NCBI GenBank assembly: GCA_027604505.1
Contig: JADIIX010000180.1
Coordinates: 1-36,791, forward strand
DNA from: Gonapodya sp. JEL0774
Lineage: Eukaryota
Reading direction: 5' to 3'
Length of the DNA: 36,791 nt
The position numbers and the translations under genes were made by a program. The notes beneath the pieces are model-generated. The model had not been told where the DNA came from. It saw nothing but the letters and a program-made list of their open reading frames with translations, and did no database searches. This document shows positions 1,471-34,498 of the stretch, in pieces (position 1 is the first letter of the stretch; each line of letters starts with the position of its first letter).

Positions 1471-1603
1471 CAGAACGGGTTGTTGTGGTGGCGCGAGTGG
1501 GTTCTCTATGCATATTAAGAGTTCGGGCCTTCCCGCGCTTTCCTTGACTTTCCACCCCTTTAGCCACGTCGCATGGTCCAAGAAGTTCTCCACCGCCACC
1601 GAC

Positions 1604-1950
1604 CGTCAAAGAGCTTTCTGTTCAAGATTGCGAGGACGTGATTCCGTCCCACAAACTGTTTGTTCCTCGAAAACGGAATGTAGTAGTGGGGCGGCGAGGA
1701 GCCAGGATTCGCATCAACTCTGGATTGAAAAGCACTGATGACATTCATGATATTGCAGTGGTCACAGGTACAGAAAGTAAGCACGCGGAGCCGTGAATGG
1801 TGGAGCTTACCTCGAGCCTTGGTTGTTAGAGTTGCCGATGTGAACGCGGTCACCTTCAATGTGCTGGGAGTGTATTATTATGTTGGTGACGTTCCTCGTC
1901 GGTGCAAGAGAATTTGGAAAGGTTTGTTGTCCATCATGGGTGGTCAGCAT
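1604..1950 (-). pseudogene. Truncated paralog (copy 1) of the amyloid-motif NLR: exon 1 1950-1811, intron 1810-1735, exon 2 broken off near 1604
   Basis: Colinear with 11080-11414. The spliced product is MLTTHDGQQTFPNSLAPTRNVTNIIIHSQHIEGDRVHIGNSNNQGSSAFQSRVDANPGSSPPHYYIPFSRNKQFVGRNHVLAILNRKLFD. Homology stops before Walker A. Confidence 0.85.
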
Positions 1951-2444
1951 GGGACGGATGGTTGGGACTGGGAGGGGGTTGGGTGGTGCCAGAGCGGGAA
2001 GACAAGGATTTGTTGGGGAATTCAAAAGGCGCACGGTCCACACAAGAGCAGAATGGCCGAACCAACAAGGATCAATTGGTTGCTGTCGTTTGGAGTCCTT
2101 GCAATAGGTCACGCGACTGAACCTGCCTGAGGGTGTCAGGTGCCACAGCAACTTTGACCACCGCAAGTACAACGGAGCAAACTGGACAGAACAACTTCAG
2201 TCGCCAGAGGATTATTATCACCCTCCTTTTTCACCTCCCAAACACTCATGGCAGAGGTTTTCGGGATCGTCTCGAGCGCTGTCAGTATCGCCGCCACCTT
2301 CAGCACCTGTCACGAATGCTTCAACTACGTCCAAATCGATCGCCGCTTCGGCGAGGACATCCAAAAGGAAACGCTGAACTTCGCGTTGGGGTGAGGGTGT
2401 CCACATCTACGACAAAGGCGGTCCAAATACCAGCACCTGCTCCG
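1604..2444. repeat. Direct duplication of the NLR 5' end / intergenic / het-S 5' end block (partner 11080-11982)
   Basis: Clear colinear nucleotide similarity, e.g. CACGGTCCACACAAGAGCAGAATGGCCGAACCAACAAGGATCAAT in both copies. Confidence 0.9.
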
Positions 2445-3121
2445 AAGGCGCCGATGAAGTGGCCCTTGCAGAGAGCACGCTTTATCAGATCCTCGTGCCA
2501 ATGGCGGTCTCTGAGAAAGTGTAGCACAAGTACAAGTATGAAGCCGTCCCCGTCGAGGACAAGTGTTCGGATGCGAAACCAAATGATTGAGCTTGCAACG
2601 CGTCGTCAGAACAATGCCCCTCTGCGAACGTTAGCTTCATGGGCACTGTACGACATGGGCACTTTAGCAAGCTGGTGGAAGGCGCAATAACGTTGCTCGA
2701 CAATCTTGGGCATGTATTTCCCGCACCGCCGGACCACGTGACAAGGCTCGTGATCGAGGACGCCAAGGCTGTGGACGAGTTTTGCCACTGACGCCATTGC
2801 TGGGGTACCAGGTGGGCAATCTCAGGATCCTCAAGTGGCACAGATACTGAGGCTGGTGCAAGATCTGGCTGAGAAGGTGGACGAGCCTCTTAACAAAGAG
2901 TTCGGTAGCGGGGCGGCAAGGAAGGGGGTGCATATAGAGAATACAGAGGTTGTGGACAATGCAAAGATGCGCTTATGCATATTTTTGGTAGAGACTGGCA
3001 AGGTCAGGCTGTACTACCGCAAGGTAAGTCCAGTATAGACATTGGAAAATAACGGGCTGGGGGCAATGCGAAGGCTCACGTCGGAGAGAGTTTTGCTGAT
3101 GAGGACACCTTCTGGAATTGG
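2248..3121 (+). pseudogene. het-S: het-S/het-s homolog (HeLo domain plus two-repeat prion-forming domain), full-length but with several frameshifts and stops
   Basis: Reading across frameshifts: MAEVFGIVSSAVSIAATFSTCHECFNYVQIDRRFGEDIQ...SRWGEGVHIYD...ELATRRQNNAPLRTLASWALYD...SKLVEGAITLLDNLGHVFP...GVHIENTEVVDNAKMRL...SIDIGK*RAGGNAKAHVGESFADEDTFWN. This is colinear with Podospora HET-s as recalled (MSEPFGIVAGAL...LSRWGEAV...RRQK...AWALYD...R1...R2...GFWDN). Lesions: 23-nt deletion near 2379 relative to copy 2, TAG 2522-2524, frameshifts near 2565, 2660, 2780 and 2976, TAA 3050-3052. Confidence 0.88.
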
Positions 3122-4909: not shown

Positions 4910-5393
4910 AATGATGACCCCCCAGAAACCCCTCACAGGCCACATCATGTGCAGAATTCAAAATCGTGCGGTGCAGGTGGTGGGTACTTCACATATAAAG
5001 GTGTTGGATCTTGAAGATCACTCTGCAGTTCGCTGTTCCGAACGTATTTCTCCATCGCTTCTTGCCCTTCAGTATTCGCCCCTCAATCTCACCTGTGGAC
5101 AACATTCCTCACGACGATCCGGTGGACACGGCCGAGAACGCTGAGGCCGAGGTGGCGAGCGAGGTGAGCGAGAGGGACGAGAGGAGGGAGGCCGAGGGGA
5201 AGCGGGTCGAGGTGGTGGCTTGGATTGGGAACGCCGGGGTCTGCATCATTTGAGAACGAGGAATCGGTTGGGTGAGTCGTACGCACCCACCAACAACCCT
5301 ATGCAACTCTCCAACTTACGCTTTGGTCGTCCAACTCCACCAACTCCATGCCTCATGCCCCCCCTTCCCTCCTCCCCCTCGGCAAGGGATGCG
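4910..5393. repeat. Internally deleted third copy of the ~5-kb duplicated block
   Basis: 4921-5094 matches ~12800-13050/29065-29320 (CCCAGAAACCCCT; TTCACATATAAAGG-GTTGGATCTT). It is joined directly to 5095-5393, which matches ~32530-32830/16050-16480 (GACGATCCGGTGGACACGGCCGAGA). Confidence 0.8.
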
Positions 5394-6935
5394 ACCAAAG
5401 GGATTTTAAGGGATTTCAGGGGTTTCAGGGGTGGAAAGGGGAGAAATGGGGGAGAAACGCGAGGGAGGGCCTTTTTGGCCCGCGACCGCGGGCGTGGCCT
5501 CAGCACGCACTCACTCCATCAATCCCATCGATCACTCCCAACCTCTATTAACAATTGATTCCATTCTCACGCAGCGGCATCCGCACAGCCACAGATCGCC
5601 GCTTAAAAGAAGGATTGTTTCTCCCCTGTCGCCAGCCGTTCCAATCCCCGATTCCGCCCAATTCCCACCACCATTTGTGGTCAAATAGGTGTAGCTGTCC
5701 CAACCGCCACATCTCCGAAATTCTGTACTTAACTACGCTATATTTTGATGCCATTTATGGTTCTGCAAGGGGTGCGGAGGTACACCGACGGCCGAAATCC
5801 GATGAACAAGGAAGGTATTCTGAGTAAGTCCTCCGTGCGCGTTTGATCTCGATTTTCTTGTCGCTCATTCCTCTTCCACGTGTGAGGCGTTTGTGTCGCC
5901 CAGATGCACCCCTCATCATCAACGGCATCCCCACCCGACGGCTCTCAATGGGGAGCGTCAAGGAGGCTGTCAATGTCGTGGGCTGGATTGCCACAGTTCT
6001 GGACAAGGGAACAAGCTGGGATGAAGGATTGCTGATGGCGCCATAATCTCGTTTATTTCATTTTTGAAGGTCATATGGATCAAATACCAGAGAGCGAAAC
6101 GGGAAACCCTGCGAATTGCGAAGCCATCAAGGTATGTAGTTCAATATGTTGATTTTCCTTTGGAAAACGTCCAGAGCACGCATTTTGCGATTTGCGCAGG
6201 AACTTTGGAGGCGCATTGACAAAGACTACCCAGAGGATGGTGGTGTGGAGCGCCATGCCGCCTCTGCACGGACAGATCACAAACGGCCCACAAGTCACGG
6301 CATTTCTAGACTCCACAGATTGTTTGAGTAGCTACGCACTCATATGCGCAAGTAGATTTGCTCGGGCCCTCCCTGAATAAAGAAAGTTATCCCCGTGAAA
6401 CAAACCCCCGGAGATGCGTCATGATCCATTTGGGAAACGGCTGCTTTTCAGTATACTCACACATTTTCTCATAGTATCGGAAACCGTTGCGTTTCTGAAG
6501 AATTGACCCTGGGCGGTGTTGGTGTGTTTGTCGTCTCAGGTCTTGGCAGGTTTGCCCTGGACTAAGACAACAGGAAAGACACAACCGTCCATACTCGATC
6601 CATTCAAATACGACGTGATTGTCTCTGTATTCAACTCTCTTCGCGGAAACCCGACGAGAAAGAGGCCTTAACGTCACCCTCCGGAGTACCACCGTGCAAT
6701 GGCCTCGGGAGAGCTTTCACTTCGCGCCGCCCTCTGGCTTTCGATCCTGTTCTCGATTGTTGCTGCACTTGTCGCGGTGAATTTTGCTCCTCAAACGCAC
6801 TTGATTGTTTGAACGGGCTGCTGTCCTAGACGCGGGCGGCCCATTACCACACCTCGACCCTGCAAGTAATGTTGAGAATGGATGGAAGCTTGCAGAATCG
6901 CGCGGAAGGGGTGTGCTACCTTTGCACATCATAAT

Positions 6936-7412
6936 ATTGCAATGCTCAATTATTTGTGCGCGCCAGGATTTGCAGGTCTGTAGGATAATTCCTTTTATAG
7001 CAGTCCAACAACACTCTCCATGACTCACATCTATAGTAATGCCACTACCTCATAATTATGTTCATGGTGTATGTTACGTTACATCGTTTACTCTCGCCAT
7101 TTCAAAGATGATGGAGATCTCCAAGGTGAGCAGGGAACAGCAGCAGTTCCATGCAAGGGGCTGGTTAACAAGGAAAGATCACGTGACAAGAAACTGCGCT
7201 ACCAACTTCACAATGTCACTTGAGCCCTCCCTAATTATAATAATAATAATCCCAACTTATCCTGTTATCCTATTATCCTGTCACCCTTCACCTTTTGTTC
7301 TCTTGTGCCTTCGCTACACAAGCCTCCACACAAACACCAAACTGAAAACAAAGAAAACAAAACAAAACGAACCACCCTACAAACGAACAAAAACTATGAA
7401 GTTCGAGCTTCT
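6936..7412. repeat. 3' flank of the LRR array, duplicated at 34031-34498
   Basis: Both copies start ATTGCAATGCTCAATTATTTGTGCGCGCCAGGATTTGCAGG and remain colinear up to the terminal LRR exon. Confidence 0.9.
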
Positions 7413-10400
7413 TCACACCTCAATTGTGCGTCGAGTATTGGAAAGTGCCTTGAATGCTCTTTTACCAGCGTTATCTATGGAGTTCCCTGGAGGAGTGAGA
7501 GGAGAGAGAAGAGAATAGACCATGTGTGTGTGTGTGTATGACTCAGCGACTCTGAGCGAGAGGTCACACTCTGATACTCACCACTGACATTGAGCAACGT
7601 CAAGGTGGAGTTGCTCTTGAGGGCCTCAGCAAGCGCTCTGGCGCCAGCGTCGCCGATCTCGTTGGCTGGACGATGGCGAGAGGAGAGAGGAGAGAAGAGA
7701 CCATGTGTGGGTGTGTGAGTGACTCAGCGACTCTGAGCGAAAGGGAGGCCACACTCTGATACTCACATTCGACATCGAGCAACGTCAAGGTGGAGTTGGT
7801 CTTGAGGACCTCAGAAAGCGCTCTGGCGCCAGCATCACCGATCGAGTTGTCTGGAGTCGAGAGAGGAGAGAGAGACGAAGGATAGGAGAGAGGAGAGAGG
7901 AGACCGTGAGGGTGTGTGTGACTCTGCGAGTCTAAGTGAGAGTGAGCGGGAGGTCACACTCTGATGCTCACAATGAAGGTTAAGTGACGTCACGGTGGAG
8001 TTGGTCTTGAGGGCCTCAGCAAGCGCTCTGGCGCCAGCGTCACCGATGGAGTTGTCTGGAGTCGAGAGAGGAGAGAGGAGACCGTGAGGGTGTGTGTGAC
8101 TCTGCGAGTCTGAGTGAGAGGGAGCGGGAGGTCACACTCTGATACTCACAATGAAGGTTAAGTGACGTCACGGTGGAGTTGGTCTTGAGGACCTCAGCAA
8201 GCGCTCTGGCGCCAGCCTCACCGATCGAATTGGCTGGAGTCGAGAGAGGAGAGAGGAGACGGAGTGTGTGTTCATGTGTGTGACTGAGACTCAGCAACTC
8301 TTGAGCGAGAGGGAGCAGGAAATCACACTCTGATACTCACCACCGACATTGAGCGACGTCAAGGTGAAGTTGGTCTTGAGGGCCTCAGCAAGCGCTCTGG
8401 CGCCAGCCTCACCGAGCGAGTTCCCTGGAGTCAAGAGTGCAGAGAGAGGAGAGAGGAGACGGAGTGTGTGTTCATGTGTGTGACTGAGACTCAGCAACTC
8501 TGAAGTAAGAGCGAGAGGGAGGTCACACTCTGATACTCACTAGTAAGGTTGAGCGACGTCAAGGTGGAGTTGGTCTTGAGGGCCGCAGCAAGCGCTCTGC
8601 CGCCAGCATCACCGATCGAGTTCCCTGGAGTCAAGAGTGCAGAGAGAGGAGAGAGGAGACGGAGTGGGTGTTCATGTGTGTGTGGGGGTGACTCAGCGAC
8701 TCTGAAGCAAGAGCGAGAGGGAGCAGGAAATCACACTCTGAGATTCACTTTCGACATGGAGCGACGTCAAGGTGGAGTTGGTCTTGAGGGCCTCAGCAAG
8801 TGCTCTGCCGCCAGTCTCACCGATCGAGTTCACTGGAGTCAAGGGAGGAGAGAGAAGAGAGGAGACGGTAGGGGTGTTTGTGTGTGTGTGTGTGACTCAG
8901 TGACTCTGGAGCAAGAGCGAGCTCGAGGTCAAACTCTAATACTCACTATAAAGGTTGAGCGACGTCAAAGTGGAGTTGGTCTTGAGGGCCTCAGCAAGCG
9001 CTCTGCCGCCTGCCTCACCGATCGAGTTCCCTGTGGGTTCGGGTCGGCCGGGGTGGTGGTAAAATCATACGATCCAAGACACTTTAACATCACTATGCAT
9101 AACTCGCCATTAGCCTTGCTGGACTCACCCGTCAACGTTAGGGTCCGGACGGCACTATTGTTTTTGAGCGCGTGGGCGATCGCCCTTGCTCCAGCATCTC
9201 CAATTGACTTCCCTTTGGTGGAGGGACGACAGTTGGAGGAGGGGGAACAGGTAAGAAGGGAGTAGAGCGTCCATGTTTCGCGACTACTTGGTGAGAGTTG
9301 AAACCCGCAAATTGAGACACAACTCACACGACAGATCAGGCTTGGTTTCGTTGTTGGCTATGTCCTGCAGCACCTTGGTTAAAGCCCCTGCCCCGGTTCT
9401 TTCTGTGTTTCCGAAATCTTTAGCTAGTAGGTTCGCGATTGTGAAGGCTTCGCGTTAGTACCAAGTGATTTGGGTGGTGTATGCCAACTCACCCCATCTC
9501 CATGTCCCCAGGTCTTTCTCCGATAAAATTCTGGCAGGATCGTTTTTCGGCAGCGTCTTTACCCGGATATGGTGGACACTTTCCAGCAGGGTTTGTGCTA
9601 GTTTTTGCTGCCCTTGGGAATAGTACGCTCTTGCGAGTGCGTGCTGGGCCGCCAGCAGATCCGGATGGTCTTTTGATAGGACTCCTTTCCGAGCAGCAAC
9701 AACAAGCTCCAGCGTGTTCACTGCCTTGTCTACTTGTCCGGTATACTCGTATGCGAGGGCGAGCTCTTGCTGCGCCTCTAGCAGAGGAATGTCCTCTTGG
9801 GTAGAGGTTGGATGTAGAAGACGTCTGAATGTTCTATCCAGTTGGGCAAGCCAACCTCTCGCCAGTTGTTGTCTTCCAAAGACACATGCTTGAAGCCATA
9901 GAGCTGCTTCTGCGAATCTTCCGTCGGAGTTCAAGCACCGCCCAACCTGAAGACAGAGGTCGTATCTCGGTTCCAGCTCCATTCCTTCGCCACTTCCCAG
10001 TACCTTCACGGCGTGCGGGAGGTACTCCCTCCATCGCTCTCGATTGTCCCACTCGTTGGTTGGAAATATTGAGCTGATGTGTGTGATTGCCTCTTCCATC
10101 TTTTTCGACGCAAAGCGCTGGGTGCACAGCCAGTCCCATGCCGCCAGGTGCACAAGACGGTGGAGATCATACACTTCATCCTCTCTGTTGGTTTCCTCTG
10201 AGCGACGTGACACAAATGCGTACCCGATGAGGGTATTGATCGCTCCTTCCATTTTCACGGCACTCCCGGCGGTGGGCAGGATGGTTCGAGGGATGGACTT
10301 CCATTCAATACACGCCATGAAGGCCAAGATGTTTGCCGAGAGAGGATTTTCTTGATTGATCTGCTTGAACGAGACCACCCACGTTTTGGCCACTGCATTT

Positions 10401-11414
10401 TGGGATTCCTCGTAATGTGTTCGGTCACGGAAGTCTTCGCTTAGCAGTTCCATCTTATTTTCTTCCAGCAGTTCCCGATACCTTTTGATTGTAATTGCAT
10501 TAATATTCAGGTACGCTGCTGCTTGGGCGATTGCAAGCGGAAGGTTTGTGAGTTCCTTGAGGAGTTTCGCAGTGTTCAACTGATCCTCGAGCAATACTTT
10601 TCGTGTGAGGGACTTCTTAAACAACTCTGCCGCCTCCTGTCCACTCATCGCTTGCATATTGATGGTATCAACACCTGCGAGGTCCACTCCGACCTTCTGA
10701 GGGCGGGTTGTGAACAGTGTGAGTCCTTGTTCGCTCTGTGGAAGGTAGTAATCAATACCTCGTCCCTGCTTGGGGTGAAACACTACTTCTGCATCGTCGG
10801 CATTGTCTACGATCAAGAGCCACCGTCCGGCTGCGTCCTCGCTCAAATATCGCTTGACAACCTCCTTTATGTCTTCTGTTGCCCCTGTCGTAAGAGAGAT
10901 GCCAACTTTAATAGCCACCTCCTTGCACGCCTGCTCAAAGCTCTCCATGCTGAGTGCAGGAAACCAGAAGATTGAGTAGTCTTGATGTGTCCCCTTCACT
11001 CTGTACGCAAACTCGAGTGCAACTTGTGTCTTTCCCACTCCACCGAGTCCCACAAGAGCTGCCCTCTGACAATCCTCATCGTCAAAAAGTTTTCTGTTCA
11101 AGGTCGCGAGGACGTGATCCCGCCCCACAAACTGTTTGTTCCTTGAAAAGGGAATGTAGTAGTGGGGACGGGAGGAGCCGGGATTCGCATCAACTCTTGA
11201 TTGGGAAGCACTGATGACATTCATGATATTGCAGCGGTCACAGGTACGGAAAGGAAGCATGCGGACCCTTGAATGGTGGAGCTTACCTCGAGCCTTGGTT
11301 GTAAGAATTGCCGATCTGAGCGCGGCCACCTTCAATATGCTGGGAGTGTATTGTTATGTTGGTGACGTTACTCGTCGGTGCAAGCGAATTTGGAAAGGTT
11401 GTATCTCCCAGCAT
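7413..11414 (-). CDS. NLR/STAND protein: N-terminal HET-s-like amyloid motif - NB-ARC - TPR - RI-type LRR array; 13 exons: 11414-11287, 11210-9493, 9423-9328, 9212-9129, 9030-8947, 8832-8749, 8624-8541, 8424-8341, 8233-8150, 8055-7972, 7850-7767, 7665-7582, 7486-7413 (923 aa)
   Basis: Walker A GLGGVGKT, Walker B WLLIVDNAD, NLPLA, LHRLV, and kinesin-light-chain-like TPRs (LAAQHALARAYYSQGQ). All 12 introns are GT-AG and keep the frame; the exons sum to 2772 nt = 924 codons with no internal stop. Intron 9492-9424 has a GTGAGT donor, a perfect TACTAAC branch point (9460-9454) and a TAG acceptor. Confidence 0.85.
7582..9212 (-). repeat. Tandem exon-intron array: nine 84-nt phase-1 exons, each one 28-aa LRR (consensus xNSIGxAGARALAEALKTNSTLTxLxLx)
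   Basis: Each exon measures exactly 84 nt between an AG acceptor and a GTGAGT/GTGAGC/GTGAAT donor. Introns are 94-124 nt, mostly similar to each other, with CT- and CA-rich tracts on the minus strand. Confidence 0.93.
11301..11360 (-). other. Putative R0 amyloid signalling motif of the NLR (NITIHSQHIEGGRAQIGNSY)
   Basis: Alternating hydrophobic pattern and terminal [RK]-x-[QH]-[IV]-G-[NE] match the PFD repeats of the neighbouring het-S homolog. The motif is conserved in copy 1 (1884-1825, NIIIHSQHIEGDRVHIGNSN). Confidence 0.7.
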
Positions 11415-11708
11415 GGGACCGATGGGATTGGGACTGGGACGGGGGTTGGGAGGTGCCAGAGAGGGAAGACAAGGATTTGTTGGGGAATTGAAAAGGCGCA
11501 CGGTCCACACAAGAGCAGAATGGCCGAACCAACAAGGATCAATGGTTTGGAGTCCTTGGAAAGGGTCACGCGACAGGAAACCTTGCTTCGGCCAGGCCTT
11601 GGGTGGCACAGCCACTATGGCACCCCCCCATCTAGCAGAGCAAACTGGACAGAACAACTTCAATCACCAGAGGATTATTATCGCCCTCCGTTTTCACCTC
11701 CCACACTC
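11415..11708. promoter_or_regulatory. Probable bidirectional promoter between the divergent NLR and het-S-like genes (also 1951-2247)
   Basis: A ~295-bp spacer between the divergent start codons, conserved in both copies. No specific motif identified. Confidence 0.4.
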
Positions 11709-11982
11709 GTGGCAGAGGTTTTCGGGATCGTCTGTGGCGCTGTCAGTATCGCCGCTACCTTCAGCACCTGTCACAAATGCTTCAACTACGTCCAAGTCGG
11801 TCGCGGTTTCGACAAGGACATCCAAACGGAGACGCTCAACCTCGCATTGCTCAGTCGCGGTTTCGACAAGGACATCCAAACGGAGACGCTCAACCTCGCA
11901 TTGCTCAAGCTTCGCCTTTCGCGTTGGGGTGAGGCTGTCCACATTTACGACAAAGGCGGTTCAAATTTCAGTACGGGCTCCG
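11709..11982 (+). pseudogene. het-S: het-S homolog copy 2: HeLo N-terminal stub, start codon ATG->GTG, internal 54-bp tandem duplication, truncated
   Basis: (V)AEVFGIVCGAVSIAATFSTCHKCFNYVQVGRGFDKDIQTETLNLALL-SRGFDKDIQTETLNLALL-KLRLSRWGEAVHIYDK. Homology to copy 1 ends near 11982. Confidence 0.88.
11800..11907 (+). repeat. Perfect 54-bp tandem duplication (11800-11853, 11854-11907)
   Basis: GTCGCGGTTTCGACAAGGACATCCAAACGGAGACGCTCAACCTCGCATTGCTCA twice. Confidence 0.95.
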
Positions 11983-12355
11983 CAAAGCTGTTGGAGAGAC
12001 TGAACTTTTGATGCTATGTTTCGGCTCACGAAAGGGGTCAGCTGAGAGGAAAGACGTGCACGTAGTGAACGATTCACATATGGAAAGCGGAAGAGCCCAC
12101 GTCAACACTGCGTACATAAGAGGAAAGAAGATAAAGCAGAATGTGGAGCTGTTGGACATTAAACAACCACCGAGATTGGCTCACAAGAGCCCAAAGTGCA
12201 CGCACGAATGATACTGAGATCTCTGCGAGATACAGACTGGCCACCAAGGTTCGTAAACTACAATTACTATCCGAGATCAAGCACCCGATCGGTACGAAAA
12301 CACCATCCCGCCCCTCCTGGACTTCTCCTCCATCGGGTGAATTTTGTGTGCGAAG

Positions 12356-15300
12356 GCGTCGGGACCTCATTGGAGCGGAGGGAGTTGTGCGGAGACACTA
12401 TGCGATCGGGGTCGGTAGGATGTGGGAAGTAAGAGTAAACGGGCGAGTGGGATGAACGAATGGGGGACTTGGGACGCGCACTACTCCTTGTAAGATCCTC
12501 ACTTTATCCTTCTTGCTTGACATCTTCTCCTTCCTCCATTTTGTCGTCGAAGGGAGTGAGAAAGTTGCTGTGCATTGTCACAGAGGTGAACAGACAATGC
12601 AGACGTCGGTTTTTGGTAGGGGGTAGGGGCCGCAGGGGAAGCGGGGAGCAGGTGCAGACGGACTTTACTTCTTGTTCCACGTATACCATGCTACGTCTGC
12701 TCTCTCCCATTGCACTGCATTTTCCATCTCATGTTTCCTTCCCACCTCCCCACTTCTCCACTCAGACCATTGCCGTGCGTCCCGGAATCACTGATTACCT
12801 CCCAGAAACCCCTGATAAGCCGTATCATTATTCTGTGTAACTAGCCCAAGTATCCTACCAGATGTATCTGCCCTGGAGTCTGCCGGGAGGAGGATAGATG
12901 GGATGCAAAGTGCGGAATTGAAAACGGTGCGGGGTGGTGGGTATTTCACATATAAAGGCGTTGGATCTTCAAGATCACTTGGCAGTCGGCTGTTCTGAAC
13001 GTATTTCTCCACCGCTTCTTGCCCTTCAACATTCCACCCTCAATATTACCTGCTGAAGCCTACAACACACCCCTGTCAGTGAATAAACTGGGACTGGGGT
13101 CCCTGGTACTTACTTATCCTTCTCGGCATCCAGTCCCGGATGACTAGTGCAGCCTCCACCATTCCTACGACTGACCTGCTCACATTGTTGCCAATAAATT
13201 CGGCACCTGCGGCTGCATGACGCCAGTCCTCAATGATCCAACCACCTTACCGCTGGACTTCGGGTACCCCCACCTGCACACTAAATTCATGATACATTAC
13301 TGATTGATTATGCTGTGGGAAGGAGGGCGACGTTGGTGCCCATGAACAGAAGAGATAAGTTTCAATGACTGCCGAAATTGAAAGAATGAAGAATCGCGGA
13401 TATTGGATGAATCAAGAACGGCTTTAAATAAGCGAGGATGAAGAGAGTGTGAACAGAGTGTGCGAAAGACGGAAAGGGAGGTCCTGAACTTCTTCATTAC
13501 ACAAGAGCGAAATCCCTAAACGGCAATCATGTATTGTTTGCCTTTCATCTCCTGATTTATTCCCTGATTTCACTGAAGACAGCAAAGAAGAAGGCCACCC
13601 CTTGTGACCATGATCCAGTGACAGTCACTCCACTTGGCCACACTGATGGCAGTCAGTCCAGATGAACTCGACCAGCAAGAAAAACATATAAATGTACGAA
13701 CCAGAATAGATAGGAATAGATATCCAGATACATTCACCACCCTCGCGTTCCAATGGTGATCCTCTGATTGAGCAACCAGCATGCCTTACGCATCCACCAT
13801 CGGAGGCCACCAGCGTACACTAATAAAATTAATGTATCACCAGGGCATTGACCGACTATATGAAGCAGAGTCCTGCTAGCCTCATCAAGTGGATACTTGT
13901 CAGCTGCTGGCCATCGTTGGGTGTCAGCTGAGGGCACATCACCCTATCCCGGATGACGTGCTCTCAAACGACATTGCCCACTCTTCAAGCAACCGAAAGC
14001 TATCGAAACTCATCCCTCTTGTGAATGAGTGTTCGAACACCGGAAAGCTCAACTCCGCCCCATACCAAAGGATAGGGTGATATGCTCTCAAAGGACAAAA
14101 CCCCATCACAAAAGATGGTGTGATATGTTCTGAAGTGACAATGCCCACTCTTCAAGCAAGGCAACGCATGCTGTTGGGACTCATCAGTCCCGCTGGCTGA
14201 GCGCCTGTGCCCCCCCACGCCGACGCAGCCGTAATAACGGAAGTGGCCTGACTATCAACCGGACTCGGGTCTCTCTTGATGGCGAAACTTGTTGGCGAGA
14301 CTTGTCCCCGACCAGTCACCACAGCTCAGTGAGAATCCAGATGGTGATGTAGCGGTACGGACGAGGTGTGGTGTTGCCCGTTGGAGAGGGGTCGTGGGAG
14401 CGAGGGAGGAAGGGCGAGAAGAGAGAACTGGTGGGGGTCGGCTCGCGCGGACGTGATGTGGGATGTGCTTCGGTGGGGGAACATATCACTGGACGATGAA
14501 TGACACGACGACGTGCCCAAACGGCTGCGGGGAACTCACCAGCCGCCCCATCCTCCACCTCCTCCAGCTTGACGTCATCCCGTCCAGAAGATCAAGCCCT
14601 CCACCCTCCTTGTTCGATTCAGACTCGGCCACGAACCCCAAGAGCGAAGAGTCCAGCGAAGGGAATGGAAGAACGGTGAGCGCACCTGATACGGGGAACG
14701 GTGTTGGTCGGTGGAGCGGATGTTCGACATAGTCCCTGTCAGGATAAGTAAGTGTAGAATCTAAAAACATATCGGAGCAAAGAAAGCAACGCGGGAAAAT
14801 GAGTACTTCCAAAATCAGGTGTCAGCACAACAAGAACAGTCGCACGTACCATCGTCCTACGACTCCCTCCTTGTCCCTGACCACACCATGACGGAGTACC
14901 CACATGCCCATTCCCCGTTCCGCTGGCTTTGCTCTCATCCACCCCATCCTGCTCCATCATGTTCACACTCCCGTTACTCCCTGCTCCCCTGTTCGTGCTC
15001 TGCTTCCTCCCCGTCAACTTCGCAAACGTCCACTGAAGGAAGTTCCGTTTCGGGGGAGTACAATGCCCGGGATTGGAGGTGGAGGCGGCTGTGGGTGGCA
15101 CAGTTGTCGCCGATTGTGATGCTGCTCCAGCTCCCGACACCCCGGACAATTCCAACTCAGTCCGTCCAGTGTCCACACCGGCATCACCCTCCACACTTCT
15201 CTCCCCATCGCTCAACCTCGGACTCGGACGCGTCTTAGCCTCCGCAGTCTCCCCCGCTCACTCCATCTCACCCACTGGCCTTCTGCCGCTTGACCCCGCT

Positions 15301-17443
15301 CTCGTTCCACCCAGCCCCGAACCCCATCACCATCGTCAACGACATGGAACTGAAAGTGGACACTCCGAGCCCCAGCGTCCCGTACTCGCACGGACCATGA
15401 TGTTCCACTTGGTATGGTTCTGCAGGGACGTGGTCCGTCTCGGCATCGTGGCCGTGTCTTGGGGACCATCGCTGTTGCTCTGGGGGTGGTCGGCGCACTG
15501 GATGTGGACGTGCGCGATGGAGACGGCTACGGTTGTTTCAAATGCCCCGAAGCGCGGTCGGCGGTACGGGATCGGGGAGGGCAGTCTGACACCCCGCAGC
15601 CCGTGACCACTTGTGGGAGTAGGCGCTGACGCCACGGAGGCGTGCGACTCCTTGAACCGGCAGGGTTCGAGCTTGTTGAGGAGGGACTCGAGGATGGTGG
15701 TGCGAGCGGCGGTCGGGGTTTGTGCCGGACTGGGCGGCGTGGGTGTCTCCAGGCGTCAGTGTCAGTGTGAGATCGTCCACCCTGGCCAACTCCGCTTTAT
15801 CGTCGTCATCGTCCGTCGTGGTGGACTCCGACTTCGTGTCACTGCTCGCCACGTTGGCCATCTGCACCAACACCACCTGTACCAAACTGCTGAGCTGGTG
15901 CTGTGGTGCCGCTCCCCCACCTCCAACACCCGACACCGTCGACGCAGACACAATCGACACAGGCTTTCTGATCACGTTCCCGCCGCCGCCACTGTCGCAA
16001 TGGTGACCATTGGGGCCGCTAGGGGGAACCTCGCTCCTGTGATCGTGTCTGTGTACGACGCACCCGACGGCGACGAGCCTGGCACACGCGATCGTGTCTG
16101 TGTACGACACACCCGACTACGACGAGCTTGTCGACATGGTCGAGAACGATGGACGACGACGAGCTTGTGCACACGGCCGAGGACGCTGAGGCCGTGGTGG
16201 CGAGCGAGGTGAGCGAGTGGGACGAGAGGAGGGAGGCGGAGGGGAAGCGGGTCCAGGTGTTGGAAGCGGGTCCTGGTGGTGGAAGCGGGTCGAGGTGGTG
16301 GCTTGGGTCAGGGACGCCGGGTCTGCATCATTTGAGGATGAGGAATCGGTTGGGTAAGTCGTACACATCCACCACCAACCTGACGCAGCCCACCAACTTA
16401 CGCGTGGTCGTCCAACTCCCTGCCTCATCCCCCCAATTTCGTGCCCATCCTTCCCCCTCCCCCCTCCGCAGGGGATGCGGCGGGTCAGGTGGTGACGGTG
16501 ATGAGTATGAACGGGACGTCGAAGGAGGAGGTGGTGGCGGTTAGGAAGGAGACGACGGATGTGGTGGGCCGAGGTTGGGGGAGGTGGGAGGTGGTCGGTG
16601 TACTTGGCGGCACGAAGTACGGAAGCGCCGAAGCGCCGCCGACATGTTGGACGCCAGGAACCCGGGTCATTCCGATCCACAGGATGAGATGAGCTGGTCC
16701 CTGTCCCTATCCACCACAACCGCGGCGCCTGCCGGGGTGGACAACGACTTTCCTTGTTTTAGCAACCTCAGTTCCATCATGGCCATGCTCTAAAGGTTCG
16801 GACAACGATGGGAGGAGTACACGAGTGCTTTGGGTGGGGACAGCAGTACGCGGTGTTTGGGGTGTGGAGTGCGAGGTGGCTCGAGGACAGTGGTGTGGAT
16901 TCCGAGTGAGTGCACCAGGACAGGCAGGCGAGCGGGCAGCTGACATGTTGTATATTGAGCCATGACTGGCACCTGACATGTTGGATATTGAGCGATGAGC
17001 GGAGTCGGCCAAAAGTGGTGGTGGCTTTGGTAGCGGTGAGGGACGGAGGATTGGACGAGTGGGAACAGCTGCCCTTTCCGGACGAGTCGTGCCAGCGGTG
17101 GCGGGTGTGGGAGTGGGATGCAATGGGTGCGCCGGTTGGGTCGGTTTTGGGTCGGGGTTGATGATGCAACCCAATGAGGCGGGATCGGAAGTATGGTTGG
17201 AACAAGGCCACAGAGTGCAGAGTGCAGGAAGTCCAAACTCACGGAGCGATTCACGAGTGCGAGTTGCATGTACCAGAAGATGCCCGAGTCAAATACGAAC
17301 AGGCGTCTGCAGAGGAATAAGGGAGCGTTCGCACATGAAGCACCTCGGCATGTCCACATGCCAGCAAATGCTTACCAACAATCATAAGCCCCACGGAGTG
17401 AAGCGGCAACCGCCTCTACAGTCAGTCATTGGCGCACGCTTCA
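12356..17443. repeat. ~5-kb segmental duplication, copy A
   Basis: Starts GCGTCGGGACCTCATTGGAGCGGAGGG and ends CTACAGTCAGTCATT-GCGCACGCTTCA, as in 28631-33808. The first ~2 kb are nearly identical and the distal part is more diverged. Confidence 0.92.
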
Positions 17444-19503: not shown

Positions 19504-22408
19504 ATGTCGGACGGGCGTGCCGGAGGTGATCCCTGAACACAGTGTTTCTCCGGATCACACTTGTCAACTTACCATCCACACCCCTCTACAACTCCAGATG
19601 GCTCCAAGGCAAGACGCCTGCGTTCCGACGAGTATACCGTTGGGTGGATATGCGCTCTGCCGACGGAGCTCGCGGCTGCCCGGGCAATGTTTGATGAGGA
19701 ATACCAACCACTCGACCGGGACATGAGGGACCCGAACATCTACTCTTTCGGACGGATGGGGGTTCACAATGTTGTCGTCGCTTGTCTTCCGGCCGGAAAT
19801 CGCGGGACAAACTCTGCCGCAGCGGTTGCGAACAACCTCGGCCGGACTTTCGATTCCCTCCAGTTCGGCCTCATGGTGGGCATCGGAGGCGGCGTTCCCA
19901 GCCCAGAAGCAGACATTCGTCTGGGAGACGTAGTTGTCAGTCAGCCCTTTGAAACCTACGGCGGCGTGGTGCAATACGACTTCGGGGAACACACTTGGGA
20001 GGGGTTCCGGCGAACGGGATATCTCAACAGTCCGCCGCGTTTGCTTCTCAATGCCGTTAGCCAACTTCAAGCCAATCATCTTGCTGGAGATATCCGCCTC
20101 GCGGAACACCTTGAGAAGCTTAGACGGCTTCCAGTCTTCCATCGCGAGAGTGCCGGTCCAGACATCTTATTCCATCCCACATACAATCACAAACGAGGGC
20201 TTTGGTGCGAATCGTGTAGAGTCGATATGCAGCTCCCTCGTCCCGCTCGATCTCATGTAGAGCCCGTGGTTCACTACGGTTTGATTGCATCCGGAAACCA
20301 GGACATGAAGGATGGGGTGCAGCGGGACAGGGTCAGCAAAGAGCTCGGAGGAGTCCTGTGTTTTGAAATGGAAGCGGCAGGACTTATGAATCATTTCCCA
20401 TGCCTCATCATCCGTGGTATCTCCGACTATGCGGACTCACACAAAAACACCAGGTGGCAAGGGTATTCAGCAGGCACAGCTGCAGCATGTGCCAAGGAAC
20501 TCCTGTTGATGATACCAAGGACTGATCCGGGAACACGAGGTACGCGCCTCTATTTTGCTGTCGTGCCTCGCACTGTATCATCCTTATCTGTTGTAACTAA
20601 ACTGATCACATCCTCACGGTCATTGATTCAACAGCCTACATCCCTTTTCCACGGAATCCCCGTTTTGTGGGCCGCACATCACAGCTCCAACAGCTGGCAC
20701 AGAAGCTGCTGCACAACGAGGAATGCCGGCAGATGGCGCTCGTCGGTCTCGGCGGAGTCGGGAAGACTCAAGTCGCTCTGGAGTTTGCTTACCAAGTGAA
20801 GCAAGAGCATGCCGAGAGAGGGCGCTCTGTGTTTTGGTTGCCCGCAGTCAGCATGGAAAGTTTCGAACAAGCATGCAGGGAAATTGCAAGAACACTGGGC
20901 ATACCTTCGGAAAAGGATGATGACATCAAGGTAGTGGTCAAGCAGCATCTGAGTACGAAGAAAGCCGGTGTCTGGCTCATCATCCTCGACAACGCAGACG
21001 ACATCGGGCTTCTGACTGGTTCCAAGGGATCTTGGGGTATTTTACACTACCTTCCGCAGAGCGAGGATGGGCTCTCTGTGTATACAACCCGCACTCGAGA
21101 TGTTCCCTTGTCACTTGGAGTGGCCAATGTTATTGATGTGGACGCCATGGACAAACAGGAAGCAAAAGAACTACTTCAAATGTCCCTCATGCGCAAGGAG
21201 CTGCTCAACGACGATGCAAGCGTGGACAAATTCCTGGACGAACTTACATATCTTCCATTGGCACTCTCTCAGGCAGCAGCATATCTCAACAAAATCGAGA
21301 AAATCTCTATTGCAGATTATCTCGGCATGCTGCAAAGCACACAGGTGGCCGACGTGCTGAGCAGGGAATTCGTCAACATCCAGCGTTACTCAGGATCGAG
21401 CAATGCTGTGGCAACAACGTGGCTGGTTTCATTCAACCAGATCCGCACAAACGATCTTCTAGCAGGGGATCTTCTGGCATTTATGTCGTGTATCGAGTCT
21501 AAGGCGATCCCTCGAGCTATCTTGCCTGCGTTGGAGTCAAGATTCAAAATGGAAGATGCTATTGGCACCCTTACTGACTACGCCTTTGTGTCGCCTCGGA
21601 AGGACCAGGACATGTACGACCTCCACCGGTTGGTGCATCTTGCGGCTGGAGACTGGCTCCGCATACAGGGCCTCACGGCAGAAAAGACAAGAGAAGCAAT
21701 CCAGCATATCGCGACAATTTTTCACACAGACAATTGGGACCAGAGGAATGTGTGGAGGGCGTACATCCCGCACGCCGTGAAAGTGCTGGGGAGCAGCGAA
21801 GGCAAGGAATTGGCGGAACGATACGAGCTTTGCCTGTGGATCGGGCGATGCTTGCAGACGGATGGCAGAGTGCCAGAAGCCGTGATGTGGCTCCAGAAAT
21901 GCGACATCGGAAGACGGGACGAGTTGAAACTGGCCAAGTACCACCCGGACCGTCTCACCTCGCAACTCAACCTCGCTTACGCATAGCAGGCAAACGGGCA
22001 GGTGGGCAAGGCCGTCACGCTACTGGAGCACGTCGTCGCCGTCCGTGAGCGAGTTTTGGCCGAGGACCACCCGGACCGTCCCGCCTCCCAGAACAACCTC
22101 GCTTCCGCGTACCAGGCCAATGGGCAGGTGGGCAAGGCCGTCACGCTGCTGGAGCACGTCGTCGAGTCCATGAGCAGGTTTTGGCTGAGGACCACCCGTC
22201 CCGTCTCACCTCGCAGGCCAGCCTCGCATACGTCAAACAGGCCATGGCGGGGGCGGCTCTCTCGGCAGAAGCGGGTGCGGTCAATGGTGGTGAGGATGCA
22301 CGGCATGGGAGTGTGAGGTCCACAGTGGGTGGTAGTGGAAGCCAAGTGGCGTCGGCGCCCACTTGGTGGCGGACCATCACCACATCGGAAGAAGAGCAAG
22401 AGGAGTGA
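19504..22408 (+). pseudogene. PNP_UDP (purine/uridine phosphorylase-like) - NB-ARC - TPR NLR; exons 19504-19525, 19598-20539, 20635-22408; nonsense codon at 21984-21986 and 1-nt deletion near 22165 in the TPR tail
   Basis: PNP_UDP motifs YTVGWICALPTE, LMVGIGGGVP, GDVVVS, CFEMEAAGL, IRGISDYADSHKN. Intron 20540-20634 restores AYIPFPRNPRFVGR. GLGGVGKT, WLIILDNAD, YLPLA, LHRLV follow. The first exon is less certain (GTGATC donor). It may still express a C-terminally truncated protein. Confidence 0.88.
21942..22235 (+). repeat. 126-bp (42-aa) TPR tandem repeats with high internal identity
   Basis: CACCCG (HP) anchors at 21942, 22068 and 22193 (spacing 126, then 125). QANGQVGKAVTLLEHVV occurs twice. 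Confidence 0.85.
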
Positions 22409-27161: not shown

Positions 27162-28630
27162 TAGCGTGACGGGCCCGGGAACAAATCTCTCTCTCTCTCC
27201 CCCACCCCCTTTCTCGCGCTTGAACAACATCGCGTCCCTTGCGCTTTCGAGAATACTGTGATTATTGTTTTCCAGCCTTTTGCTTTGCCTCAGAGCGTCA
27301 CTGTACTAGTTGCCAGCAAAATCGTAGCAATAGAGATAAACTCGCAGTCACTGTGATCGCCATCTGACAGCCTTTGCGAGGATTGGTGCAGGCCTCTCGT
27401 CGTCCTCTGAATCGTCATTCATCCTCTCTCTCGTCGTCCTTGTAACGATCTGTTTACTCGCTTTCACTGTCGACTGTGTCGACTCTGGAAGAGTCAGAGG
27501 AAGGACATACGGAAGACGAAGATGACGATGACACCAACCAAGACAGCAAAGGAAGTAGCCGGGAGTCTCTTTCTGGTGCCGCTAGCGGTTGGCGATCCAG
27601 ACCTTGCTAGGGGCCTTTGCTGCCACAGATGTCACTGCTTGCTTCTGTGCTCCACCGGCAGCCACTTGCCACGGTAGGCGTTAACTCTCTCTCTCGCTTC
27701 TTTCCCCTTCAACCACCTCCGATAAGCCTGTTCAGCACAGCCGGGAACCCACCTTCGATCTGCGTCAGAGCGGGCGACGTGAGTGATTTTGCAGGCGCGT
27801 TTGATGCCGTGGATTGCGCAGGCGAGCTCGGCGCGGTGATGGTTGCTGTGGAGATGGAGGTTGGAGAACTTGCGAGGCGGGGTCGGGGGAGGCCCACAGA
27901 TGGCGTGATCATGGATCCAACTGGTTGAGAAATCTCACGCAGCCACAAGATCTTTCCCTCACGTCATTCCACCAAACTCACTTGTCTCCCACCCAACACT
28001 CCCATCCCACTCGCCCTCGATCCCCGTCCACCACCCCGCATCCGCCCACCTCGCGTTCCACCTCCACTGGTCCCCGATCCTTCCAGCCTGGATCACCTGA
28101 TTCGCTGGTAGGGACATCCGTCTGGCCACAGTCGCCGACCAGGGCGGGCTTGCGCCGGAGATGAGGACTTTTGAGCTCCTGAGTGCGTTTGCAGGATGTA
28201 ACGCTGGAGACTAGGGGAGATGTTGAGAATGCTCCTGGGATAGTAGCTTGGGGTGATTGGGGTGGTTTGTACGGCGATGAATGTGGTGACAGAGGTGGGA
28301 GAAGCCCCGTTTGGCCTGAGCGAGGAGAAGTGAGCGCTCGAGGGAACCAAACCCTATCTGTGCACACACCGTAATCTAAATTCCCCCCGAATTCTCGGAA
28401 ATGGCGGGAACTCCTGTAACCCTCCTACCCTCCCCCTCCCCCTCCCCCTCCGTCTCCGTCTCCGTCTCCCTCTCCACCAGCGCCTTCCCCTCAGCAACCA
28501 CCTCCACCCACTTTGCTCACCACTCCCAACACCTCCCCTTCCCATATCCCCAGCCCCTCCTCCATCCGTTCCTCTCCCACTCAGCGAACACCCGATCCGC
28601 CGTGACGCCCAACTCGGCGAGTGAAGGAAT

Positions 28631-31600
28631 GCGTCGGGACCTCATTGGAGCGGAGGGAGTTGTGCGGAGACACTTTGCGATCGGGGTCGGTAGGATGTGG
28701 GAAGTAAGAGTAAGCGGGCGAGTGGGATGAACGAATGGGGGACCTGGGACGCGCACTACTCTTTGTCAGATCCTCACTTTATCCTTCTTGCTTGACATCT
28801 TCTCCTTCCTCCATTTTGTCGTCGAAGGGAGTGAGAAAGTTGCTGTGCATTGTTACAGAGGTGAACAGACAATGCAGACGTCGGTTTTTGGTAGGGGGTG
28901 GGGGAAGCGGGGAGCAGGTGCAGACGGACTTTACTTCTTGTTCCACGTATACCATGCTACGTCTGCTCTCTCCCATTGCACTGCATTTTCCATCTCATGT
29001 TTCCTTCCCACCTCCCCACTTCTCCACTCAGACCATTGCCGTGCGTCCCGGAATCATTGATTACCCCCCAGAAACCCCTGATAAGCCGTATCATTATTCT
29101 GCGTAACTAGCCCAAGTATCCTACCAGATGTATACTGCCCTGGAGTCTGCCGAGAGGAGGATAGATGGGATGCAAAGTGCGGAATTGAAAAACGGTGCGG
29201 GGTGGTGGGTATTTCACATATAAAGGTGTTGGATCTTCAAGATCACTTGGCAGTCGGCTGTTCTGAACGTATTTCTCCACCGCTTCTTGCCCCTCAACAT
29301 TCCACCCTCAATCTTACCTGCTGAAGCCTACAACACACCCCTGTCAGTGAATAAACTGGGACTGTGGTCCCTGGTACTTACTTATCCTTCTCGGCATCCA
29401 GTCCCGGATGACTAGTGCAGCCTCCACCATTCCTACGACTGACCTGCTCACATTGTTGCCAATGAATTTGGCACCTGCGGCTGCATGACGCCAGTCCTCA
29501 ATGATCCGACTACCTTACCGCTGGACTTCGGGTACCCCCACCTGCACACTAAATTCATTATAAAATCCTGATTGATTATGCTGTCGGAAGGAGAGAGACG
29601 GTGCCCATGAACAGAAGAGATAAGTTTCCATGGCTGCCGAAATTGAAAGAATGAAGAATCGCGGATATCAGATGAATCAAGAACGGCTTTAAATAAGGGA
29701 GGATGAAGAGAGTGTGAAGAGAGTGTGTGAAAGACGGAAAGGGAGGTCCTGAACTCCTTCATGACACAAGAGCGAAATCCCTAAACGGCAATCATGTATT
29801 GTTTGCCTTTCATCTCCTGATTTATTCCCTGATTCCACTGAAGAGAGCAAAGAAGAAGGCCACCCATTGTGACCATAATCCAGTGACAGTCAATCCACTT
29901 GGCCACACTGATGGCAGTCAGTCCAGATGAACTGGACCAGCAAGAAAAGCAATAAATATACGAACCAGAATAGATAGGAATAGATATCCAGATAGATTCA
30001 GCACACTCGTGTAGTCGTGTTCCAATGGCAATCCTCTGATTGAGCAACCAGCATGCCTTACGCATCCACCATCGGAGGCCACCAGCGTACACTAATAAAA
30101 TTAATGTATCACCAGGGCATTGACCGAATATATGAAGCAGAGTCCTGCTAGCCTCCTCAAGTGGATACTTGTCAGCTGCTGGCCATTGTTGGGTGTCAGC
30201 TGAGCGCACATCACCCGATCCTGGATGACGTGCTCCCAAAAGACATTGCCCATTCTTCAAGCCACCGAAAGTTATTGAAACTCATCCCTCTTGTGAATGA
30301 GTGTTCGAACACCGGAAAGCTCAACTCCACCCTATCCCAAAGGATAGAGTGATTGCTCTCAAAGGACAAAACCCCATCCTAAAGGACGGAGTGATATGCT
30401 CTCAGATGACAATACCCCATCCCAAAAGATGGAGTCATATGCTCTCAAATAATAATGCCTACTCTTCAAGTAAGGCAAAGCATGCTGTTGTGACTCATCA
30501 CTCCCGCTGGCTGAGCGCCTGTGCCTCCCCACGCCGACGCAGCCGTAACAGCGGAAGAAGCCGGGCTATCAACCGGACTCGGGTCTCTCTTGATGGCGAG
30601 ACTTGCCCGCGAAGATCAGCACAGCTCAGTGAGAGACCAGATGGTGATGTACCGGCGGCACGGATGAGGTGTGGTGTTGCCCGTTGGGGAGGGGTCGTGG
30701 GAGCGAGGGAGGGAGGGCGAGAAGAGAGAACGGGTGGGGTTCGGCTCGCGCGGACGTGATGTGGGATGTGCTTCGGTGGGGGAACATATCACTGGACGAT
30801 GAATGACACGACTACGGGCCCAAACGGCCGCGGGGAACTCACCAGCCGCCCCACCTTCTAAATCCTCCACATTGACATCATCCCGTCCAGAAGACCAAGC
30901 CCTCCACCCTCCTTGTTCGATTCAGACTCGGCCACAAACCCCAAAACCGAAGAGTCCAGCGAAGGGAATGGAAGTACGATGATACGGGGAACGGTGTTGG
31001 TCTGTGGAGCGGATATTCGACATCGTCCGTCTCAGGATACGTAAGAGGAGAATCTAAAAACCTATATCGGAGCAAAGAAAGTAACGTGGGAAATGAGTAC
31101 TTCCAATATCAGGTGTCAGCTCATCAGGAACAGTCGCACGTACCATCGTCCTACGAACCCCTCCTTGTCCCGGACCACACCATAGCGGAGAACCCACATA
31201 CCCATTCCCCGTTCCGTTGGCTTTGCTCCCATCCACCCCGTCCTCCTCCATCATGTTCACAATCCCGTTACTCCCGGCTCCCCTCTTCTTGCTCTGCTTC
31301 CTCCCCATCAGCTTCGCAAACGTCCACTAAAGAAAGTTATGTTTCGGGAGGGTAGAATGGGCGGGGTGGACGGTGGAGGCGGCTGTGGGTGGGCACAGGG
31401 GTCGCTGATCGTGCTGCTGCTCCAGCTCCAGACCCCCTAGACCCTTTCATCCGAGTCCGTCCCGTTTCCACACCGACATAACCCTCCGCACTCCTTTCCC
31501 TAACGCTAACGCTCGGCCTCGGCGCATCTTAGCCTCCCCAGTCTTCCCCACTCCCTCCGTCTCACCACCGGTCTCCTCCCCTATGATCTCGCTCCCATCC

Positions 31601-33808: not shown

Positions 33809-34498
33809 GTTCGTGGATGGAAAGAGGGCAGGAGTCAAGTGATGGAATGGAGAGACAAATGGGAGAAGGGGGGGGGAGAGGGACGGGTGTGGTCTCCCCT
33901 CTGCTGTGGCCAACTGTCCCGTCCCTCTCTCTCTCACCCTCCTTAAAGATTCCCTATTGAAGGCCCTACACCCTTACTGCGTACCGCATCGTCGTCTGGG
34001 CGACGAGCGACGAGAATGTCTTAACAGAACATTGCAATGCTCAATTATTTGTGCGCGCCAGGATTTGCAGGACTGCAGGATAAGTCCTTTTATAGCAGTC
34101 CAACAACGCTCTCCATCACTCACATCTATAACAATGCCACCCCCTCATAATTATGTTCATGGTGTAGGTTACGTTACATCGCTAACTCTGGCCATTTCAA
34201 AGATGATGGAGATCTCCCAGGTGAGCAGGCAACACCAACAGTTCCATAGAAGATGCTGGTTGATAAGTGAAGATCACGTGATGAAAAACTGCGCTACTAA
34301 CTACACAATATCACTTGAGCCCTCCCTAACAATCCCAACGCATCCTGTTATCCTATTATCCTGTCACCCTTTACCTTTGGTTCTCCTGTGCCTTCGCAAC
34401 ACAAGCCTCCACACAAACACCAAACTGAAATCAAAACAAACCCCAAACGAAGCGCCCTACAAAAGACAAAAACTATGAGCTTCGACCTTTTTCACATT

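Follow-up and report, generated by a model that had tools for sequence, protein, structure and literature searches.

The window analysed here, the whole 36,791-nucleotide stretch from Gonapodya sp. JEL0774, probably carries an NWD2/HET-S-type locus in a chytrid, a reading to which we give a probability of roughly 0.6: it comprises an unbroken receptor gene, whose predicted splicing gives the architecture R0-NB-ARC-TPR-10xLRR, and two broken copies of het-S. Gonapodya is a monoblepharid chytrid (the placement is given for G. prolifera).

A predicted first exon and its R0 motif

The receptor gene NLR copy 2, on the minus strand, is predicted to start with a 128-nt exon (11287..11414; ATG at 11414, 42 codons plus 2 nt), inside which the 20-residue R0 motif lies at 11363-11304. 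It is followed by a predicted 76-nt phase-2 intron (11211..11286, minus strand, GTAAGC...CATCAG), whose removal (11286-11211) puts the NB-ARC open reading frame back in frame. A second copy of the region (1599-2444, about 85% identical) has kept the intron: exon 1 of NLR copy 1 (1811..1950, minus strand) measures 140 nt, with a 12-nt in-frame insertion relative to copy 2 and R0 at 1887-1828 on the same strand, and its intron (1810-1735) together with an exon-2 stub occupies 1599..1810 (minus strand), the stub terminating about 50 residues in and breaking off before the P-loop. Of the three frames of exon 1, only that of R0 is open in copy 1 and copy 2 alike. The original prediction had described a 42-codon first exon and a 76-nt phase-2 intron leading to the NB-ARC; its coordinates and translations are correct, and copy 1 is equally arranged. 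It had also placed a het-S-like gene on the opposite strand some 295 bp away, and the start-to-start distances are indeed 294 nt (copy 2) and 297 nt (copy 1). Just past the break of NLR copy 1, the plus strand matches part of an alpha/beta hydrolase at 1183-1515 (PF00561, E 1e-4, under the cut-off).

Profile scores and shuffled controls indicate that the R0 motif of exon 1 is HET-s-related beyond chance. Repeats of 123 stored HET-S homologues from outside Gonapodya, 219 in all, were made into a profile that was run over the whole window in six frames (3672 windows); the first three of 377 distinct matches were, in order, R2 of het-S copy 1 (at 3053), R0 of copy 2 and R0 of copy 1. The corresponding E-values are weak (0.84, 2.2 and 24), and R1, interrupted by a frameshift, fell outside the top 15 of this six-frame scan. 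Shuffled exon-1 peptides matched the real profile score in 0 of 2000 cases for copy 2 and in 6 of 2000 for copy 1. The Pfam r0 model PF17108 detects copy 1 only (E 0.03, 14.7 bits, below its cut-off of 24.3), and PF11558, the model of the canonical HET-s PFD, has no match at the locus. HRAM motifs are characterised, in the available part of PMC4518210, by Gly19, Arg or Lys at position 15 and hydrophobic residues at positions 5, 8, 10, 16 and 18. Given a one-residue gap, R0 is hydrophobic at four of these five positions (5, 10, 16 and 18) and has Gln at position 8, Arg15 and Gly19; R2 likewise combines Gly19 with a basic residue (Arg/Lys) at 15, and in R1 position 15 is Lys and the frame breaks at 19. 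Compared by eye, R0 and R1/R2 appear to have in common hydrophobic positions 3, 5, 10, 16 and 18 and the basic position 15, position 8 of R2 being a stop.

We consider it very probable that exon 1 is spliced to the NB-ARC exon as predicted. The main alternative is that R0 is a relic, either because translation begins at an ATG within the supposed intron or because R0 is an orphan and the NB-ARC-TPR-LRR protein signals otherwise. Such an ATG exists in frame at 11224 and could yield a protein without R0; it is kept in both window copies and in all four paralogues, and P0002 and P0003 are annotated as starting there. Neither exon 1 nor any LRR exon is part of the depositors' own model (KAJ3336464.1, 539 aa). 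The intron has neither a canonical branch site nor a pyrimidine tract, and between the copies it is as conserved as the exon (70/76 versus 102/111 nt). Exon 1 differs between the copies by 3 silent and 6 replacement changes and so gives no sign of purifying selection, and this lack of a silent-change excess also favours a relic, as do the death of both het-S copies, with no intact one among the annotated Gonapodya proteins listed, and the motif itself, R0 being one residue short and the residue after Gly19 in P0004 being one that cannot be Asn or Asp. Against a relic, exon 1 is open in both copies with a 12-nt indel that stays in frame, its replacements remain inside the HRAM pattern, the donor context is preserved in P0004 and P0093, and the intron, read as protein, would have 1 silent and 5 replacement changes. 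It also counts against a relic that the het-S searches covered annotated proteins only, so that an unannotated het-S may exist. Overall, we hold a relic R0 to be unlikely and splicing of exon 1 to be the better reading.

The splice is also favoured by two paralogues, P0004 and P0093, whose annotation reads on across the intron. In the annotated frame they are identical to copy 2 at only 4/15 and 8/15 residues, but their codons permit the R0-frame residue of the window at 10/15 and 11/15, with Gly19 forced in P0093, a comparison that is derived from the codon options of annotated residues and is partly expected by shared descent. These read-through residues have AlphaFold2 pLDDT values below 30. 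Many of the listed NB-ARC-TPR homologues start at or just before the NB-ARC, meaning that short first exons like that of r0 are probably missed widely in databases.

The receptor and its LRR exons

The NB-ARC open reading frame matches HDU93_002786 (Gonapodya sp. JEL0774) with 100% identity, and PF00931 (NB-ARC) is matched above cut-off at the locus. Exon 2 (9493..11210; this and the following exons lie on the minus strand) encodes the NB-ARC, its P-loop intact, together with helical domains and a short block of TPRs. Next, a 69-nt intron, its branch site reading TACTAAC, bypasses a stop at 9455 and leads to a predicted exon 3 of 96 nt (9328..9423) that contains a linker and the LRR cap. It is followed by nine 84-nt phase-1 exons (7582..9212, starting at 9212, 9030, 8832, 8624, 8424, 8233, 8055, 7850 and 7665), each corresponding to one LRR like those of ribonuclease inhibitor (RI), and by a predicted last exon (7413..7486) with the terminal LRR and the stop, the end of which matches the C-terminus of P0004. 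Joined at GT-AG boundaries, the 13 exons give 923 aa without a stop, an open model that bears out, as a predicted architecture, the NB-ARC/TPR/LRR receptor that had been proposed. Eight of the LRR exons are 80-94% identical in DNA, with variation mostly at a few positions, and the LRRs are of the ribonuclease-inhibitor class. The exon at 8832-8749 has the donor GTGAAT (8748-8743, minus strand) versus GTGAGT in most others, and exon skipping would be frame-neutral.

It is highly likely that the LRR exons are joined to the NLR by splicing. The other possibility is that the LRR exons form a gene of their own and that the NLR, closed by the stop at 9455, is an NB-ARC-TPR protein of the usual fungal type. 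The depositors' model does terminate at 9455, and a second array, located at 34025-35150 on the minus strand (82% identical to 6930-8047), has the same LRR exons (34548-35149), the same last exon and the same downstream region with no NB-ARC upstream in the window; it looks decayed, and it implies that LRR arrays can exist apart from an NB-ARC. At the locus itself, however, the canonical 69-nt intron drops the stop in frame, all later junctions are in phase 1 and no start exon is seen, by eye, between 9455 and 9212. The same linker, moreover, connects NB-ARC-TPR to LRR_6 repeats in the depositor models P0002 and P0004 from other contigs, in which the TPR block leads into the linker and the first LRR; the partial P0003 has the linker alone and P0093 has an LRR-like end. 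A separate LRR gene is thus given little probability, and we retain the joined receptor.

Both NB-ARC and LRR_6 score above cut-off in P0002, and in P0004 LRR_6 scores above and NB-ARC below. A profile of the window LRR exons matches 3 of the 120 listed homologues (lengths 321-1022), all three from Gonapodya. Folded from its single sequence, P0004 gave a poor model (mean pLDDT 43), and an alignment-based AlphaFold2 model was taken instead (mean pLDDT 73, pTM 0.61), in which NB-ARC, TPR and LRR folds are present. Searched by fold, this model has NOD2 as its best match (TM 0.22, by domain order), and APAF-1 matches the NB-ARC (TM 0.36); NOD2 is also among the best sequence matches of the LRRs. 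In the ten Atlas rows shown for P0004, families of NB-ARC and TPR type are listed but none of LRR type, which by the tool's own description demonstrates neither novelty nor absence.

Two het-S pseudogenes and the history of the locus

The effector side of the locus is broken. Copy 1 of het-S (2248..3118, plus strand) is a full-length pseudogene with a HeLo domain and a PFD, interrupted by at least 4 frameshifts and by stops at 2522 and 3050. Its PFD (2922..3118, plus strand) consists of R1 (2922-2983), with a frame break at the expected terminal Gly, a 15-aa loop, R2 (3029-3091), with a stop at motif position 8, and an aromatic tail; R1 and R2 stand in separate reading frames, and they are the repeats that the original prediction had quoted for 2925-3118, its quoted stretches lying at 2922-2975 and 3029-3091. 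Copy 2 (11709..12011, plus strand) is a pseudogene stub from which the PFD is absent, its similarity ending near 11982, with GTG in the place of copy 1's ATG and a 54-nt tandem duplication at 11800-11907. HeLo (PF14479) is matched above cut-off in both copies (E 7e-16 and 4e-08), and the best stored-protein match to the loop and R2 is P0244 (36% over 44 aa). Some 370 nt past the break of het-S copy 2 begins a large direct duplication (12352-17443 / 28627-33808, 80-88% identical, with a partial third copy at 4949-5394); it has no Pfam match in its scanned ORFs and is possibly a mobile element.

Among annotated proteins, a search with the HeLo N-terminus gave 3 matches among 63 candidates, none of them an intact Gonapodya HET-S, and a search with an alignment of the het-S fragments likewise gave no intact Gonapodya HET-S among the best 120 of 303; the latter ranks mainly by the HeLo domain, because MAFFT misplaced two C-terminal het-S pieces. 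Both copies being pseudogenes and no intact Gonapodya het-S having been found, the locus cannot signal in cis. An effector was taken to have two C-terminal repeats, a loop of 6-18 aa and an aromatic tail. The locus has an adjacent HeLo gene, a single r0 (attached by a predicted splice) and two repeats with a 15-aa loop and an aromatic tail; the effector is untranslatable in both broken copies, and for this reason we class the locus as derived and half-decayed rather than as a working pair. Of the NWD2/HET-S-type module first proposed, the r0 in a hidden first exon thus stands, given the profile and the shuffles, and a working module at the locus was rejected, both het-S copies being pseudogenes.

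Where did the pair come from? Among the matches listed, most of which carry no species name, 29 for the NLR and 25 for HET-S are named to species and lie outside Gonapodya, and we take all of them to be Pezizomycotina. That the named relatives are all Pezizomycotina suggests horizontal transfer, then LRR capture, and a horizontal origin from an ascomycete donor is what we prefer, as reasonably likely from these similarities. In an unrooted NB-ARC tree of 121 regions, six Gonapodya rows, including a PNP_UDP NLR, form one clade (SH-aLRT 89), whose nearest path is about 0.9 changes per column; chytrids other than Gonapodya, basidiomycetes and bacteria were left out of its rows, and with no outgroup the tree does not give the direction of transfer. 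In the Atlas, NB-ARC-TPR clusters of bacteria and of ascomycetes score equally high.

Contaminant contigs in the Gonapodya assembly, or ascomycete DNA mis-joined in the NLR/het-S part, could likewise explain why Pezizomycotina supply the nearest named relatives for both genes, the more so as no Gonapodya prolifera protein is among the matches listed and no conserved housekeeping gene in the 90 scanned ORFs anchors the contig taxonomically. The data speak against this: identity to non-Gonapodya NB-ARCs is at most 57%, LRRs occur in 0 of 115 non-Gonapodya matches listed, the six Gonapodya NB-ARCs fall in the single clade above, and the NB-ARC-to-linker join is seen on contigs of 36.8, 12.1, 10.1 and 39.9 kb, separate contigs that exclude a single mis-join. 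Contamination is unlikely, with a very small probability, and horizontal acquisition by Gonapodya itself remains our preferred origin.

The PNP_UDP NLR is a second NLR of the window (PNP_UDP-NB-ARC-TPR, 19537-22313, plus strand), with an NB-ARC region 54% identical and a position sister to the R0 NLRs in the tree. An in-frame stop at 21984 falls in its TPRs, the nearest ATG (19598) is out of the frame of the PNP ORF and a probable intron lies near 20541-20635; a splice join for this gene was sought in the window and none was obtained. The pairing of PNP_UDP and R0 with related NB-ARCs suggests that N-terminal modules were swapped within one Gonapodya clade.

In the NWD2 paradigm (PMC4344463, available in part), a ligand on the repeats leads to oligomerisation, r0 templates the PFD of HET-S and the HeLo domain damages the membrane. 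By analogy with Podospora, a ligand would be bound by the repeat domain of the Gonapodya receptor, mainly by the LRR solenoid, the NB-ARC would oligomerise and the clustered R0 motifs would stack as a beta-solenoid, which would template R1/R2 of HET-S and let HeLo permeabilise the membrane. We infer with considerable confidence, from the same analogy, that amyloid templating operated in the ancestral pair; that an intact HET-S partner exists today is possible at best, and on the unlikely side. Both window copies being broken, the receptor would likely trigger cell death only if the genome encodes an intact HET-S at another site; failing that, R0 is an orphan. As to history, the NLR/het-S pair would probably derive from a Pezizomycotina fungus, the TPR array may then have been shortened and joined to the array of 84-nt LRR exons, and the receptor gene would have been amplified as het-S decayed at the window locus. 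Because the exons are symmetric, repeat number could change without a frameshift, as may be compared with Ectocarpus. A bolder and doubtful reading is that Gonapodya has a true NB-LRR family, made of an acquired ascomycete amyloid-signalling NB-ARC-TPR, whose TPR sensor was truncated and gave way to a shufflable array of 84-nt LRR exons, with R0 wired to an intact HET-S elsewhere; if true, NBD-LRR receptors would have arisen here independently, the family still being at a stage with both TPR and LRR, and a zoosporic fungus would possess an amyloid death pathway.

Comparison with known systems

In Podospora anserina, nwd2 and het-S are divergent, with a single r0 at the N-terminus of the NLR and two repeats in the effector, and nwd2 is a pseudogene in het-s strains (PMC4344463, available in part). 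As far as that text goes, the window resembles NWD2/HET-S in its divergent NLR and HeLo genes, its single N-terminal r0, its two effector repeats and the decay of one partner, and it differs in several respects: the receptor is NB-ARC/TPR/LRR rather than NACHT/WD40, the host is a chytrid, the broken partner is the effector, and the motif is hydrophobic at position 3 with Gln at position 8. Amyloid signalling related to HET-s has been described, in the portions of the literature available, from Pezizomycotina and two Agaricomycetes, and no report of amyloid signalling in chytrids was found in open-access text.

The motif itself is not unprecedented. The original prediction presented it as a variant of HRAM, and by eye it is like five of the 155 rows in file S1 of Daskalov et al., 2015 (PMC4518210), namely Antav1_424285, Antav1_430800, Gymlu1_170006, HypCI4A_1_318309 and HypEC38_1_21470, a likeness judged against a file without HRAM1-5 labels or receptor architectures. 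These five rows and the window PFD share a hydrophobic r2 position 3, a Trp-containing loop of 15 residues and a tail that is acidic and aromatic. The row codes, which we take to be JGI codes, presumably stand for Anthostoma avocetta, Hypoxylon spp. and Gymnopus luxurians. The two r0 motifs listed for these rows have Gln8 and Ile10, as has the window R0, which differs from these two in its length of 20 aa and in Ile, not Asn, at 18. R0 is therefore one residue short, as had been noted, and this is no novelty, since one-residue-short r0 motifs of 20 residues already occur in other rows of file S1 (PMC4518210). A new motif class was considered and rejected, given the close resemblance to this group in the 2015 dataset.

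Receptors of the NB-ARC-TPR type are also known beside HeLo genes. In Arthroderma they neighbour HeLo/PP genes, and the same paper describes a motif of het-eN hidden by an overlooked 5' intron (PMC3321046, available in part); the window shares with these examples the NB-ARC-TPR receptor beside a HeLo gene, the shared amyloid motif and the missed intron, and differs in having HRAM and LRRs where theirs, in the same partial text, have PP or sigma motifs and no LRR. Hidden r0 exons recur in metagenomes. We scanned 30 of 33 metagenome het-S loci, leaving out L005, L012 and L027, which lack upstream DNA: an r0-like motif follows an opposite-strand ATG in 10 of the 30, none reaching a P-loop unspliced, and in 7 of the 30, bearing in mind that L014, L021 and L028 are near-copies, a short intron links r0 to a nucleotide-binding domain. 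The introns of those seven are in phase 1 and that of the window in phase 2. Locus L024 combines HRAM with NB-ARC (PF00931, E 1e-8), head-to-head and with a hidden r0 exon. At L001 (1-877, minus strand), an r0-like motif with Gln8, divergent from het-S, is followed by a helical domain, with no P-loop within the contig. A metagenome scan with P0122 gave 136 pattern matches, 0 of them confirmed. That the hidden exon is unusual was accordingly rejected in view of the seven metagenome loci and the 5' intron of het-eN, and the NB-ARC/TPR trigger, advanced as new, had been described in 2012 in receptors beside HeLo genes with a shared amyloid motif and occurs in L024 too. In sum, there is precedent for NLR and het-S genes paired divergently, for amyloid motifs on NB-ARC/TPR receptors and for an r0 in a first exon.

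What is novel is the predicted R0-NB-ARC-TPR-10xLRR receptor and its chytrid host, with one 84-nt exon per repeat, recurring in paralogues. Fungal NLRs are described as using WD, ANK or TPR repeats and no LRRs (PMC4986451, available in part; 2025 review, PMC12881547); a survey of fungal genomes found LRRs in none of its 5,616 NLR candidates and did not find any NLR in chytrids (Dyrka et al., 2014; PMC4986451, in the part available). Later work, again as partly available, counts a few chytrid NLRs. The supplements of PMC12258605, as far as available, include G. prolifera among the surveyed genomes without per-gene rows, and the word 'LRR' is absent from the 12 of their 17 files searched for it. 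If the exons are spliced as predicted, a chytrid NB-ARC-TPR-LRR family would overturn the statement that fungal NLRs have no LRR.

Beyond fungi, animal NOD2/NLRP and plant NB-LRR proteins have a nucleotide-binding domain and then LRRs, as in the window, with LRRs of the RI class. The window differs from NOD2/NLRP in having NB-ARC instead of NACHT, a TPR block between the nucleotide-binding domain and the LRRs, and an amyloid N-terminus; the whole-chain TM-score to NOD2 is just 0.22, which argues for a shared domain order, not for one fold or ancestry. The candidate immune receptors of Ectocarpus similarly have one exon per repeat, but there the LRRs are carried by ROCO GTPases and the NB-ARCs carry TPRs, and shuffling and diversifying selection have been demonstrated. 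If spliced as predicted, the chytrid family would be a living intermediate for the origin of NBD-LRR receptors.
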